Source: Candidatus Daviesbacteria bacterium
GTDB lineage: Bacteria > Patescibacteriota > Microgenomatia > Daviesbacterales > UBA10151
Assembly: GCA_028687915.1 (NCBI GenBank)
Contig: JAQTZF010000001.1
Location: 930,634-994,633, forward strand
Reading direction: 5' to 3'
Length of the DNA stretch: 64,000 bases
A program made the translations under genes and the position numbers. Below the pieces are notes generated by a model. That model was not told the DNA's origin and searched no databases. It saw nothing but the letters and a program-made list of their open reading frames with translations. This document shows, piece by piece, positions 20,684 to 26,059 of the stretch; position 1 is the stretch's first letter; each line of letters begins with the position of its first letter.

Positions 20684-21946
20684 CTAAGAGTTGAGGATTT
20701 TTTCAAAAGCAGCTTTGTTTTTTAGAGGAGCAATAATCTGTAAGTTAAAGTTTTCTTTTTTAAATAATTCTTTAGCAACTGCCTGTATATCTTCTTTAGT
20801 AATCTTATCTATTTTTTTCAAATACTCATCAAATGTTTCTAACTCTCTATCTAAAATAAAACTTACCCCAAAATGTTCTGCCAAAAAGTTGGTTGATTCA
20901 GACCTTAAAGCAATTCTTCCTCTTTCCATTTCCTTGGCTTTAGCTAATTCCTCATCTGTTACTTTCTCCATAACAGTTCTAAGTAATTCTGCTTTAATTA
21001 CCTCTAGTCCCTCTTCTATCTTTTCCAGCTTTAATCCACTGTAAACAGCAAAAAAACCAGTATCCAAATATGATTGATGTGCAGCAGAAATATGATAGGC
21101 TAAACCTCTTTTTTCTCTGATTTCACTAAATAACCTGGAAGACATTCCCTCCCCCAAAATCACTCCCAAAACTCTGGCTGCATAACGCTTGCTATCATCT
21201 CTGCTATAACCTTTTACTCCTAAAATTAAATTAGCCTGATCTGTTTTTTTATAAAAGATATTAATTTTAGGTTTTGTTTGTATACTTGGCTTAAATGGAA
21301 GATATGTTGAATTTTTATTTACAGGCATATCGGAAAAATATTTATTAGCAATTTCCTCAATATTTTTGGGCAATTTTCCTACAAACAAAACTGCCATATT
21401 GGAAGAGTTATATAAAGATTTTAAGTAATTCACAAAATCTTCCTTTTTTAATGCTTTAACAGTGGACTCATCTCCTCCAATGTCCCATCCGATAGGTTGG
21501 TCACCAAACTGTAAGGCTTCATATAAATCCCAAATATATCTGGTAGGATTATCTTTGTACATCCTGAGCTCTTCAACAATGACTCCTTTTTCTTTTTCAA
21601 TTTCATCTTCAGATAATAAAGGTTCAGAAACCATGGAAGATAACATGTCACTGGCCAACTCAATATGCTTCGTAGCAGATTTTATCCAATAAAAAGTATA
21701 TTCTTTATCAGTTCCTGCATTGTTAACTGCTCCAATACCATCAACCAAATTAGCAATTACTTTAGCTGAAGGATACTTTGCTGTTCCTTTAAAAGCCATG
21801 TGTTCAACAAAATGGGATAAGCCATTAATTTGTTTGCTTTCATATCTGGAACCAGCTCCAATAGCCACCATGCTTGTTACAGAATCTAAGTGAGGTAAAT
21901 CAATTGTGATTAGAGTCAAACCATTTTTTAAAGTCGTGAGTTTATA
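20684..21946 (-). CDS. Peptidase M16 (pitrilysin/insulinase-like zinc protease)
   Basis: Inverted zinc-binding motif HFVEHMAFKGT (HxxEH). Track start 21991; the internal ATG at 21946 (MYKLTTLKNG) avoids overlap with the divergent gene. Confidence 0.8.
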   Translation of the reverse strand, partial: YKLTTLKNGLTLITIDLPHLDSVTSMVAIGAGSRYESKQINGLSHFVEHMAFKGTAKYPSAKVIANLVDGIGAVNNAGTDKEYTFYWIKSATKHIELASDMLSSMVSEPLLSEDEIEKEKGVIVEELRMYKDNPTRYIWDLYEALQFGDQPIGWDIGGDESTVKALKKEDFVNYLKSLYNSSNMAVLFVGKLPKNIEEIANKYFSDMPVNKNSTYLPFKPSIQTKPKINIFYKKTDQANLILGVKGYSRDDSKRYAARVLGVILGEGMSSRLFSEIREKRGLAYHISAAHQSYLDTGFFAVYSGLKLEKIEEGLEVIKAELLRTVMEKVTDEELAKAKEMERGRIALRSESTNFLAEHFGVSFILDRELETFDEYLKKIDKITKEDIQAVAKELFKKENFNLQIIAPLKNKAAFEKILNS

Positions 21947-22041
21947 CATCTGAATCAATTTTACCAAATTTAGCTTCATTGAACAAGACATGCATTCAAA
22001 ATTTGATTATTTTTGACTTTCTGTTACAATCTTTCCCTGAT

Positions 22042-22632
22042 ATGATAGACAACAAAGAAAAATTACAGCTTCTCTTTCAAGAATTTCCAGCTCCAGCTGG
22101 GGAAATACCAGAATTCTTAGCTGAAGATCTGATAACTAATGGCATCAGTGATGCTCTCTGGAATAATTACGTGTATTATTTTTATGATAATCTCCTGGAC
22201 TTAAACCAACGCGCTCCCCTATGTTCTGAAGAGTTTCCTCGCTTTATCAGCAATCTTAATAGTTTACTTGTACCAGCTTGCACCACCCAATTTCACAAAG
22301 ATTATGCTCAAAGATTAGCTATTATATGCTATGGCTATGGTGTTAATCAGGCTAACCCAAATGATTTTGTAGCATCAGCAGATCTGTACCAATTACTGGG
22401 ATTAGATAAAACAAAAAGTAGTATTTATACTCCAAGAGGTGCTAGAAGAACTGAAACTAAAGCTTATGAAATCAGATTAATCGAGGAAAAACAAAGATTT
22501 TTTAATACTGGCCTTCAACAAGGTAAAATACTACCCCCTGAGAAAACATTGGAACAAGCAAGATTAAGGCTGCACCCCTGGGAAGAACAAATTCAACAAG
22601 TTCACCATGTTTCAGTAACCAAATATCAATAA
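22042..22632 (+). CDS. Hypothetical protein (about 196 aa from the ATG at 22042)
   Basis: ORF with no assignable domain. Its 3' end overlaps the rarA stop by 7 nt. Confidence 0.35.
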   Translation: MIDNKEKLQLLFQEFPAPAGEIPEFLAEDLITNGISDALWNNYVYYFYDNLLDLNQRAPLCSEEFPRFISNLNSLLVPACTTQFHKDYAQRLAIICYGYGVNQANPNDFVASADLYQLLGLDKTKSSIYTPRGARRTETKAYEIRLIEEKQRFFNTGLQQGKILPPEKTLEQARLRLHPWEEQIQQVHHVSVTKYQ

Positions 22633-23861
22633 TATTTTTTACCCTTAAGTTTTACCGGTAACAAATCTTCCTTAGAATATTTTTGATAACCATCTCCATA
22701 ACCTAAGTTTTTCATTAACTTTGTAGGAGCATTCCTTAAATTCATAGGTATAGGTAGAGCACCAAAATTTTTAACATCATCCAGTGCTTTAAAATATGCC
22801 TCATAAGCAGACCTGTCTTTTTTAGCTACACTCAAATATACAACCCCATGGGCTAAATTAATCTGACATTCTGGATACCCAATTGTTTCTACTGCCTTAA
22901 ATACTTCATTTGCTACCACTAAAGCAGTTGGTTGGGCCTGCCCAATATCTTCTGAAGCAAAAATTACCATACGTCTTGCAATGAATTTTGGATCTTCCCC
23001 TGCACTTATCATCCTGGCCAAATAATAAAGAGCTGCATCAACGTTGGAAGCTCTCATAGATTTTATAAAAGCAGAAATAGTATTGTGATGTTCTTCTCCA
23101 TGTTTATCATAAGATAGAACTCTTTCCTGCAAAGCCTCAACAATTAATTCCTTAGTAATTATTATTTTGTCATCCTGAGGCTTTGCCGAAGGATCTCGAG
23201 ATTCTTCACTGCGTTCAGAATGACAAACAGACAAAACTGCAATTTCCAAAACATTTAACACTATTCTGGCGTCCCCATTTGAGGCTTCTATTAATAAATC
23301 TAAAGCTTCTGGTAAAACCTTAACTTTAAAGTTTCCCAAACCTTTTTCTTTATCCTTAAGTGCACGGTTTACTATCTCTTCTATATCTTCCCTTTCTAAA
23401 GACTTTAAAGTTAAAACCCTGGTTCTGGATAATAAGGGATTAATAATTTCAAAACTTGGGTTTTCTGTGGTAGCCCCAATTAAAGTAATTAAACCATTTT
23501 CCACATAAGGTAAAAAGGCATCTTGTTGGGCTTTATTAAATCTGTGAATTTCATCAATAAAAACTACAGTCTTTTTGGGAAACATAGGATTATGTTCAGC
23601 TATAACTTTTTCAAAAAGTTTTTTAACTTCAGCTATTCCTGTAGAAACTGCAGAAAACTCTACAAAATCTGCCTCTATTTCAGAAGCAATCACTCTGGCT
23701 AGTGTTGTTTTACCAACTCCTGGAGGACCCCAAAAAACCATGGAAAATAATTGGTTATTTTTAATAGATTTATAAAGGAGATTATCTTCAGACAGAATAT
23801 GTTTTTGACCAATATATTCTGCTAAATATTTAGGACGCATTCTATCTGCAAGAGGAATCAT
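22626..23861 (-). CDS. rarA: Replication-associated recombination protein A (RarA/MgsA), AAA+ ATPase
   Basis: N-terminal MRPKYLAEYIGQKH, Walker A GPPGVGKTTLA, Walker B VVFIDEIHRFNK, and C-terminal MgsA_C region (AALYYLARMISAGEDPKFIARR). Contains a 19-aa in-frame insertion encoded by a palindromic element. Confidence 0.85.
   Translation of the reverse strand: MIPLADRMRPKYLAEYIGQKHILSEDNLLYKSIKNNQLFSMVFWGPPGVGKTTLARVIASEIEADFVEFSAVSTGIAEVKKLFEKVIAEHNPMFPKKTVVFIDEIHRFNKAQQDAFLPYVENGLITLIGATTENPSFEIINPLLSRTRVLTLKSLEREDIEEIVNRALKDKEKGLGNFKVKVLPEALDLLIEASNGDARIVLNVLEIAVLSVCHSERSEESRDPSAKPQDDKIIITKELIVEALQERVLSYDKHGEEHHNTISAFIKSMRASNVDAALYYLARMISAGEDPKFIARRMVIFASEDIGQAQPTALVVANEVFKAVETIGYPECQINLAHGVVYLSVAKKDRSAYEAYFKALDDVKNFGALPIPMNLRNAPTKLMKNLGYGDGYQKYSKEDLLPVKLKGKKYY
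23169..23224. repeat. 56-nt imperfect palindromic (MITE/REP-like) element inserted in-frame within rarA
   Basis: GTCATCCTGAGGCTTTGCCGAAGGATCTCGAGATTCTTCACTGCGTTCAGAATGAC. The two arms are near reverse complements around a central ATCTCGAGAT and translate to CHSERSEESRDPSAKPQDD. Confidence 0.7.
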
Positions 23862-23911
23862 AAACCTACTATACCCAAATCAAATCCGAAGGTCAAGAAT
23901 TAATTATAATT

Positions 23912-24637
23912 TTAGAATTTTAAAATATTAGATCCATTTAATCCTCGTGGTTTTAATACTTCATCTATTGATATCCAAGCATCACTTTCTGGAATTATTA
24001 AGTATGATGATTCATAAATTTGCTGCACTGCAGCTGCCCCATGATGTTTTACTTCCTCATCAATTTCATAGTTTTTAACCAATGGAGCTTTTAATGCTAT
24101 TTTACTTGTACTATCTTCATATTTTTCCCAATCATGATTATTCATTGGGTGCCCGGAAAGACATCTATTAAAATCAAAATAATCCCTTAAATGTTTTGTG
24201 GCAGCTACAGCCTTGCAAGTATCAACAAGATTACAAAAAGACAACTCTTTATTTCTATTTCTTTTGCTTAACTTGCTGGAAGGATAAGGCCATGATAAAA
24301 AACCTCTCGCCATTTTATCGATATCAGTCACCCCAAACCTATCAAGCTCAATACACCCGCTTAACAAATCATCAACCTTCAGACTACCATCTTCAAGTCT
24401 TTGGGGCTGGCATTGCAAAGGAAGGCAATATTCAGAAGCTAAGTTGGCTTCTATAATTCTGTTATGAAGACAAAAAGGCACCAAAAATAATTCTGTATTC
24501 AAGGTAATTGTTTTTAAAGCTTCCAAGCTTAAATCTTCAAAATGTGGCCACGAATAATTTGTTAATGCAGTCCAAACCTTTAAATCTTCTTTTGCTTCTA
24601 AAGGATATTTTAAAGTAAGTTTTTCTAAATCTACCAT
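23912..24637 (-). CDS. Hypothetical protein (241 aa)
   Basis: Long ORF between rarA and cysS with no recognisable motifs. Confidence 0.4.
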   Translation of the reverse strand: MVDLEKLTLKYPLEAKEDLKVWTALTNYSWPHFEDLSLEALKTITLNTELFLVPFCLHNRIIEANLASEYCLPLQCQPQRLEDGSLKVDDLLSGCIELDRFGVTDIDKMARGFLSWPYPSSKLSKRNRNKELSFCNLVDTCKAVAATKHLRDYFDFNRCLSGHPMNNHDWEKYEDSTSKIALKAPLVKNYEIDEEVKHHGAAAVQQIYESSYLIIPESDAWISIDEVLKPRGLNGSNILKF

Positions 24638-24676
24638 AGCCCGATTATATATATCTATAAGATAAAATCAAGAAGG

Positions 24677-26059
24677 TTAAACAGGTTTAAGTTTTGAACC
24701 AGTGGCAGTATCTTCTATTTCAAATCCTAATTTTTTAATTTCATGTCTTAACTCATCTGATTTTTTAAAGTCACCAGAAATTCTTGCATTCTCCCGATGG
24801 TTTAAAAGTTCTTGAACTTTTTCTGGAATTTCCAGTGGCTTACCAACATATTTTTCCAGACCCAATCCTAAAATTTTATCCATCTCTAAAATAGTTGCTG
24901 CTTTTTCTGAGGAAGGTATGTCAGATTTTATTAACTCCCACATGGCTGCTAGTGCCTGAGGGGTATTCATGTCATTATTGGCAGCCTCAAGAAATTTCTG
25001 CCAAAATTGGCTATTAACTAGTTTAGGGCTATCCCACGCTCTAATCTCAGAAATTATGTTGTTTAAAGCGTGGCTAGATGCAGTCAAAGATTCGTATGTA
25101 AAATTTAGGCTATCGCGATAATGAGCAGTCAAAATTAAATATCTAAAAGCTATTGGATCAAACCCTTTCTCTACTAGATCATCAATCGTATAAAAATTCT
25201 TTTTTGATTTTGACATTTTTTCCCCATCCACAATCAAGAAGTTATGATGAACCCAATATTTTGAAAACTGTTTTTCTGTTGCTGCTTCGCTTTGAGCAAT
25301 TTCATTGGTGTGATGGACAGGAATATGATCAATCCCACCTGTATGAATGTCCAAAGTCTCTCCTAGATATTCCATGGACATAGCAGAACATTCTATATGC
25401 CATCCGGGAAAGCCTTCTCCAAATGGAGACGGCCATTTCATTACATGACTGGCAAATCTGCCCACAGTAAAAAACCATAGTGCAAAATCCTGCGGATTTT
25501 TTTTGTTTGGATCTATCACCACATTCTCTCTTACCCCAACTTGTTTTTCTTCGAGTTTTTGACCGCTTAATTTTCCATAATCTGAAAACTTACTAATATC
25601 AAAATAGACTGCATGTTCAGTTGTGTAAGTAAAACCTTTCTCCTGTAATTTCTCAAGTAATTTAATCTGCTCGTTTATGTGTTCTGTAGCACGGGCAACA
25701 ATATTTGGCCTTTCTATATTTACAACCTCTGTTGATTTAAAAAAATAATCCTCAAAAAATCTGGCAGTTTGTTCTGGAGTTAGGTTTCTATCTTTTGCAC
25801 CTTTTTCCAGCTTATCATCACCCTCATCTGAATCAGATGTTAAGTGCCCCACATCTGTAATATTCATAACATGATTTACTTCAAATCCATTAACCTCTAA
25901 AAGACGATGTAAAATATCATCCCCAATATATTTTCTAAGATGTCCAATGTGTGTGTAATCATAAACAGTTGGACCACAGGTATACATCCCAACCTTAGGT
26001 GGATTAATTGGTTCAAAGTCTTCTATTTTTCTGGTTAATGTATTGTATAAATGTAGCAT
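24677..26059 (-). CDS. cysS: Cysteine--tRNA ligase
   Basis: HIGH motif ([10 protein letters not shown]), KMSKS motif (KMSKSKKN) and zinc-binding Cys pattern. 460 aa. Confidence 0.9.

Follow-up and report, generated by a model that had tools for sequence, protein, structure and literature searches.

A gene-less hairpin doublet in the RarA lid loop of a Candidatus Daviesbacteria genome, with likely kinship to Ssn-associated repeats

How does a palindromic repeat come to lie, in frame, within a housekeeping gene, and to which kind of mobile DNA does it belong? The question is raised by rarA (mgsA) in a stretch of 64,000 nucleotides from Candidatus Daviesbacteria (the window, to which coordinates refer unless a locus is named), where an imperfect palindrome of 56 nt lies at 23169-23224 within the coding sequence. 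The identity of the host gene is clear: the open reading frame (ORF) at 22626-23861 on the minus strand encodes 411 aa with the Pfam domains AAA, AAA_assoc_2 and MgsA_C, its product is 100% identical to P0001, the replication-associated recombination protein A of a Candidatus Daviesbacteria metagenome-assembled genome (1,096,538-bp contig), and it matches Escherichia coli MgsA (PDB 3PVS) with E = 2e-99. A first-pass annotation of the sequence had described the palindrome as a mobile element of the MITE (miniature inverted-repeat transposable element) or REP (repetitive extragenic palindrome) kind. The answer favored here, with a probability of roughly 0.8, is that it is a gene-less, MITE-like doublet of two hairpin repeats associated with Ssn nucleases, inserted in frame in a loop of the RarA lid that tolerates it.

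The element reads GTCATCCTGAGGCTTTGCCGAAGGATCTC and, beyond an internal junction, GAGATTCTTCACTGCGTTCAGAATGAC. Its arms, its fold and the intact reading frame all agree with an in-frame imperfect inverted repeat at the position first described, with two amendments. The arms reach 3 bases further on each side, to 23166-23227, where flanking TTT and AAA extend the outer stem; with these counted in, the outer arms TTTGTCATCCTGA / TCAGAATGACAAA (23166-23178 and 23215-23227) are 13 nt long and 92% complementary. Moreover, what had been taken for a single simple palindrome is a doublet of two different hairpin units, inverted and abutting tail to tail, so that their junction forms the central TCTCGAGA; the inner palindrome at the center is GAAGGATCTCG / CGAGATTCTTC. 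Unit A (23169-23197, plus strand; GTCATCCTGAGGCTTTGCCGAAGGATCTC) starts with a GTC head; its ATCCT/AGGAT stem encloses GA...GA, within which lies a GGC-TTT-GCC mini-hairpin, and is followed by C. Unit B (23198-23224, minus strand) reads GTCATTCTGAACGCAGTGAAGAATCTC in the sense of the rarA mRNA. Both halves follow one plan, namely GTC, a 5-bp stem that starts with AT (ATTCT or ATCCT), GA, an inner hairpin, GA, AGAAT or AGGAT, and C(TC), and their interiors differ. RNA folding, which the first-pass annotation had proposed, gave a stable hairpin in the mRNA sense (-22.7 kcal/mol, z = -3.3, with 0/200 shuffles as stable), and the DNA fold has z = -2.3. In shuffled versions of the window, a GTCATYCTGA head combined with a GAAGRATCTC tail has an expectation of 0.00, and the G+C content of the element, 28/56 or 50%, compares with 34% in the surrounding 2 kb. 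An Rfam scan of rarA (E <= 10) returned chance-level matches only, and a terminator and promoter scan gave no signal at the element.

Comparison with close relatives indicates that the element is an insertion rather than an ancestral linker. In an alignment of the 120 closest RarA proteins, the element's peptide occurs in P0002 (90% identity) only; P0004, P0005 and P0010 (77-82% identity) have a short linker with no insert, and P0003 (86% identity) has a different sequence at this position. The DNA gives the same picture: the locus of P0002 (L001) has this doublet, two synonymous substitutions in the unit loops apart, the locus of P0004 (L003) is without it, and in that of P0003 (L002) an unrelated palindrome, TACACACCGGGAGTCACTCCCGATGTGTA, takes its place. 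The ortholog alignment thus bears out an in-frame insertion of a mobile palindrome, the halves of which match a dispersed repeat family; the first-pass annotation had reasoned that ancestral sequence would recur as the same 19 residues in RarA proteins of unrelated lineages, and among the 120 closest proteins it is P0002 alone that shares them. The copies of the element in the window and in L001 agree at 56/58 positions, whereas rarA third codon positions are only 58% identical; 17 of the 19 third positions inside the element are kept and the stems are preserved. This conservation does no more than hint at constraint on the hairpin, because the flanking ~90 nt upstream are also unusually conserved between the two. 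The copy may be a relic inherited from an ancestor shared with L001.

The rarA frame continues unbroken across the element, which supplies codons 213-231 (CHSERSEESRDPSAKPQDD; 23169-23225, minus strand), and a translated insert would be expected to yield tryptic peptides such as SEESRDPSAKPQDDK. The earlier figure of 19 added residues holds for the codons derived from the element, but measured against the nearest insert-free orthologues the protein is longer by 13-15 residues. Placement in a variable stretch likewise stands, the insert aligning to gaps in a non-conserved stretch of E. coli MgsA, ADMAEVDDSGKRV (~residues 219-231), after the sensor-2 helix. A position strictly between the AAA+ lid and MgsA_C does not: because the Pfam lid model (AAA_assoc_2) covers residues 177-270, with the insert inside, the segment is better placed in a loop within the lid region. 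In an AlphaFold2 model of the window RarA (40 homologues, mean pLDDT 77), residues 219-229, between helix 198-220 and strand 233-235, have pLDDT below 50. The 19 residues probably form a hydrophilic, disordered surface loop that RarA tolerates; the open frame, the low pLDDT of the loop and the ~160 rarA loci that remain in frame (below) agree with the earlier view of a tolerated insertion, which is presumably neutral.

The repeat family to which the two halves belong is widespread. IMG/VR, a collection of public viral contigs, was scanned for GTCATYCTGAR-N8-16-GAAGRATC, and at least 163 units in at least 120 stretches were found. The units listed have head and tail in common and vary in their inner hairpins, for example GGCGAAGCC or CGAGCGCAGCGAGTC; their consensus is GT CAT TCT GAG CGC AGC GAA GAA TC, the second frame of which reads HSERSEES, so that the family and translation to which the first-pass annotation had pointed were recovered. 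Because 54 of the 163 units listed (about a third) have an inverted unit within 110 nt, at spacers of 2-60 nt, the inverted doublet appears to be a usual form of the repeat. Fifteen viral contigs (L010, L011, L013, L014, L025, L032, L034, L050, L055 and others) carry one identical unit, GTCATTCTGAGGAGCGCCATTTACACGAAGAATC, with identical flanks; they apparently represent one phage lineage sampled repeatedly, in which case units also live in putative phage genomes. A blastn comparison of the 76-nt region with PLSDB plasmids gave no match, the query being too short.

A characterized nuclease system provides the closest parallel. Chenal et al. 2025 described the Neisseria NTS, CGTCATTCCCGCGMAVGCGGGAATCYRG (the older dRS3 repeat is part of it), and defined around it a wider class of Ssn-related motifs (SRM) (PMC11893778). 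SsnA, a 94-aa single-domain GIY-YIG protein, binds the hairpin in single-stranded DNA alone and cleaves a few nucleotides upstream of it; cleavage is governed by the three bases that precede the palindrome and binding by the C that follows it, and the ssn gene is typically flanked by its own motifs in an insertion-sequence-like SRM-ssn-SRM arrangement (PMC11893778). The paper covers intergenic clusters, mainly in Pseudomonadati, with Patescibacteria and coding-sequence insertions unmentioned (PMC11893778). Both units in the window start with TGTCAT, in keeping with the H-GTC-W-Y head 5' of the palindrome, and both have a hairpin followed by C (ATTCT...AGAAT-C and ATCCT...AGGAT-C).

It is in related genomes of the candidate phyla radiation (CPR) that the same unit types are found beside ssn genes. 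In L158 (Patescibacteria) a 91-aa GIY-YIG ORF at 2425-2700 of that locus is flanked by GTCATCCTGAG...GAAGGATCTC on one side and GAGATTCTTCACTGATCGTTCAGAATGAC on the other; the former side includes GTCATCCTGAGTCCACCAGAGGCGGACGAAGGATCTC, which is of the unit A type, and the latter the reverse complement of TTTGTCATTCTGAACGATCAGTGAAGAATCTC, which is unit B with its TTT prefix, 2-nt indel apart. L135, a Daviesbacteria-like locus, has two GIY-YIG cassettes, one of them with GTCATCCTGAGCGAAGTCGAAGGATC, of the unit A type, on both sides and at a distance of 1.6 kb downstream of rarA, and L143 has one GIY-YIG gene with several GTCAT-hairpin units downstream and none detected upstream. The SsnA homologues flanked by these units are 91-111 aa long. 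The L135 and L143 proteins match Pfam GIY-YIG (E = 7e-14 to 3e-17), and NCBIfam gave the CPR proteins only a sub-threshold match to group I intron endonucleases. A Neisseria gonorrhoeae protein, the gene of which lies among four canonical NTS, shares 56.7% identity with the L143 protein (over 96% of the length of the latter) and 39% with the L158 protein (E = 2e-19). A search with the L158 protein returned 1018 homologues, several of them named Daviesbacteria and most on short contigs, as expected for repeats. The gonococcal gene is an unannotated ssnA homologue with four canonical NTS around it (L302; NZ_CP119142.1 1881319-1882388), on a 2.17-Mb N. gonorrhoeae replicon filed as a PLSDB plasmid.

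By its architecture and by the company that its unit types keep, the element is best assigned to the NTS/SRM-Ssn family and not to REP elements, so that the MITE half of the first label is retained and the REP half is not. The likeness to NTS/dRS3 and SRM comprises the HGTCAT head, the short hairpin and the C after the stem (PMC11893778), together with the inverted unit pairs around a ~90-aa single-domain GIY-YIG gene in related CPR genomes and the 39-57% identity of the CPR nucleases to the gonococcal homologue with the NTS-surrounded gene. The differences from NTS lie in the A/T-richer stems (ATTCT/AGAAT, ATCCT/AGGAT), the tandem GA and the inner mini-hairpin, and in a window that shows neither an ssn gene nor another copy. 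It represents a sub-family that the published consensus does not cover, and it occurs in a phylum and a coding context that the paper leaves undiscussed. By analogy, its units are putative targets for binding or cutting by an Ssn-type nuclease.

Two further groups of elements invite comparison. In-frame palindromic insertions have been known since the Rickettsia palindromic elements (RPEs), reportedly introduced by Ogata et al. in 2000 as 'selfish DNA in protein-coding genes'; RPEs are ~100-150 bp long, and we know of no nuclease assigned to them. Like an RPE (reviewed in PMC10969869), the element is a palindromic repeat that lies in frame and without a stop in a housekeeping gene, would contribute an extra surface segment, and is missing from orthologues; unlike RPEs, it is 56 nt long, its unit types flank ssn genes in related genomes, and the same loop has been hit repeatedly in orthologues. 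Correia elements and Coxiella QMITEs are short, non-autonomous elements with inverted ends and a gene-lost look, some of which extend ORFs in frame (PMC5896051). The element shares with bacterial MITEs the inverted ends and the look of an autonomous element minus its gene, its ends matching those of the L158 cassette; it departs from them in that no target-site duplication accompanies it and that a small nuclease, in place of a DDE transposase, is the putative partner.

Because the ends of the element match both ends of the L158 ssn cassette, it can be read as a gene-less cassette, and the following course of events is proposed. The starting form would have been an ssn cassette, with the two unit types inverted around a ~90-aa GIY-YIG gene, and the rarA element would consist of two cassette ends joined, the gene missing. 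Insertion into a surface loop of the RarA lid would have taken place in an ancestor that this genome shares with one close relative, with the reading frame preserved and left open, and the element would now be translated as a 19-residue loop that RarA tolerates. Other units of the superfamily would recur in this loop most likely as a consequence of its being one of the few places in a gene where insertions survive selection. The scheme builds on the observed anatomy, family likeness, insertion status, ssn association elsewhere and recurrence at the site; from these we infer mobilization by an Ssn-type nuclease and the direction from cassette to doublet.

Several points weigh against this account. 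No second unit was found in the 64-kb window by the pattern, by a generic GTC-hairpin-ATC detector or by inverted-repeat listing, tblastn detected no ssn homologue there, and in ~46 kb of the three closest relatives (L001, L002, L003) there is no unit outside rarA. The dispersed copies that the first-pass annotation anticipated are therefore lacking in the window itself, which has one doublet, and are found in other CPR loci and among the IMG/VR matches listed, where units are abundant. None of the 120 best Ssn homologues was traced to a contig of this genome, so that a nuclease partnership in it is only putative. No target-site duplication was seen at 15 junction pairs, and translation of the insert is deduced from conservation of the frame. 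Ssn nucleases have been shown to cut near hairpins and are not known to transpose them. Finally, the literal SRM search expression, HGTCWYN(0-2)YYVSBRHN(0-5)WNVSBRGN(0-2)RNCYNB (PMC11893778), has no match in the window, units A and B failing it because their stems are A/T-richer. The flanking unit of L135 also fails this expression, and a unit from the RarA loop of another locus, L287, matches it.

The recurrence of inserts at the RarA loop is the most noteworthy addition to what the first-pass annotation had noticed. An extra segment at this loop is present in 30 of the 120 closest RarA proteins, and at least 24 of the 30 segments end in the translation of ...ATGAC (xND, xHD, xYD or GMT; counted by eye). 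The segments are of several kinds (VIATP...PRNDK, VILNSFQDP...VQHDK, HPELVSGS...VRHDK, VIPAKAGIH...SGMT), and in a neighbor-joining tree with the linker masked the insert-bearers are scattered among insert-free proteins, with neighbors holding different kinds. DNA of eight loci (L285-L289, L212, L214, L136) confirms the inserts: seven start with GTCAT, end with ATGAC and are inverted doublets of differing unit sub-families, and L136 has one unit only, with ATGAC at its end. In L287 the left unit, GTCATTCCCGCGAAAGCGGGAATC, is the Neisseria NTS core. At the DNA level, ~160/160 rarA loci gave one uninterrupted in-frame alignment; every unit has TGA in one of its three frames, so that the inserts that survive are those that passed selection. 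In a sample of 48 loci taken regardless of inserts, events per kb were 0.96 in the loop (3 events), 0.35 in non-ORF DNA (13) and 0.015 in other ORFs (9). The loop behaves roughly like intergenic DNA, and because the two densities are close, a permissive loop is enough to explain the recurrence.

Nor is this loop the only coding sequence so affected. A second RarA site, after residue ~90-93 (window numbering) and between the Walker A helix region and the Walker B strand, holds GTCAT-type units in ~10/120 homologues (L147 9156-9232; L136 4729-4763; P0019, P0071, P0020, P0056), and a third site near residue 393 is occupied in 3/120. RarA is not the sole housekeeping gene involved, because a doublet of the GTCATTGCGAG type lies in frame in dnaX (DNA polymerase III gamma/tau) at L147 837-907, where it reads MSLRGVETTKQSQIAALPAVARNDD, and also in L235.

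The same loop houses palindromes without the GTCAT head. Besides TACACACCGGGAGTCACTCCCGATGTGTA, shared by L002, L125 and L205, these are CACTCCCGGAGTG-N17-CACTCCGGGAGTG (L167, L257, L261, L263, L267), AAGGTCTGACCTTTCGAAAAAAGGTCAGACCTT (L148/L236) and ACACCCCAGGGGTGT (L126), and no further copies of them were found in the loci fetched. The palindrome CACTCCSGGAGTGKGT of other RarA loops was considered as a dispersed family and set aside, its 12 IMG/VR matches being estimated at about chance level. In one RarA-loop unit (L288 10628-10701; GTCATCCTGAACTCGTCCTTCGGCAGGCTCAGGACCTGCCAGACCGTGAGTGTAGCCGAACGGTTTCAGGATC) the hairpin loop itself contains a further hairpin, which suggests that one element inserted into another.

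The pattern of occupation could alternatively mean that the loop is a preferred integration target, to which elements are directed by the local DNA (such as TTGTCT of the Val-Leu-Ser codons, which is similar to the unit head, or the AAA Lys codon) or where a resident element attracts its replacements. Such a preference would fit the 30/120 at the loop against ~10 and 3 at the other sites, a loop density ~3x that of intergenic DNA, the strikingly constant right end of the insert, next to AA(A/G/T) of one conserved Lys codon in every case, and the non-GTCAT palindromes of more distant lineages. It is nonetheless unlikely: the three events in the unbiased sample compare with ~1 expected at the intergenic rate (Poisson estimate P ~0.1), the left ends range over ~nine codons, two other RarA loops and dnaX also take inserts, and neither a target-site duplication nor a shared target motif was found. 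More doubtful again is co-option of the hairpin, whether for regulation of rarA by DNA or RNA structure, as an Ssn cut site limiting recombination of incoming rarA, or for a functional peptide. The near-identity of the element with that of L001, its kept third positions, and the confinement of both changes to loops would be expected of a co-opted structure, but the upstream neighborhood is unusually conserved as well, close relatives manage without the element or with unrelated units, no terminator-like or Rfam signal is present, and the insert is modeled as disordered.

Membership in the REP/REPIN class, with mobilization by a RAYT (Y1 tyrosine transposase), is very improbable. The inverted hairpin doublet does resemble a REPIN, in both systems a nuclease gene, domesticated or selfish, has its own repeats on its flanks, and a 239-aa Y1_Tnp (PF01797) gene lies 3.4 kb from rarA in L003, an 80%-identical relative (L003/L004 12021-12740, minus strand). 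REP elements of REP/RAYT systems, however, have a GTAG-type head, as against GTCAT here, and are extragenic by definition; the genes flanked by the present units encode GIY-YIG and not Y1 HUH enzymes, and no GTCAT hairpins stand beside the Y1_Tnp gene of L003, which seems unrelated to the element. The chance that the segment is an ancestral linker or a fortuitous palindrome is close to nil: E. coli MgsA is variable at this position too, yet the 77-82% identical orthologues are without the segment, its composition is foreign to its surroundings, both halves match the dispersed family, and its pattern has an expectation of 0.00, so that this idea is already contradicted. Equally hard to credit is removal of the element from the RNA, intron-like and untranslated. 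The strong mRNA hairpin is all that could be adduced, with no direct support; an open frame through the insert at ~160/160 loci would be needless if it were spliced, the TGA in one frame of each unit implies that open frames reflect selection, and there is no match to an Rfam family.

The surroundings of rarA are themselves conserved. The order cysS - small ORF - rarA - M16 peptidase (20684-26059) is kept in Daviesbacteria-like loci (L001, L002, L003, L286, L288, L289), and related loci have recR and a second M16 peptidase gene upstream. Plus-strand GC skew is negative across the window and the genes at 20.7-26.1 kb are on the minus strand, which together suggest that the minus strand is the leading strand.

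These findings tie peptide motifs that litter metagenomic protein predictions (HSERSEES, PRNDK, VIPAKAGI) to a defined repeat superfamily, the founding members of which have a characterized nuclease partner, and extend that superfamily to CPR bacteria and IMG/VR contigs. They indicate that such repeats can turn into coding sequence of housekeeping genes, as in rarA and dnaX. Because the inserts of different orthologues are not homologous, masking them is advisable in annotation and phylogenomics. It is a long shot that the RarA lid loop of Daviesbacteria and other CPR bacteria is a true integration hot spot for hairpin elements, Ssn-associated and others, that are targeted to it or retained for an acquired role of the hairpin or its peptide; if it were, the action of RarA on single-stranded DNA at stalled forks and the cutting of single-stranded hairpins by Ssn could be linked. 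The repeated, independent occupation of one RarA loop is, in addition, a natural experiment on the sites at which a protein tolerates insertion.

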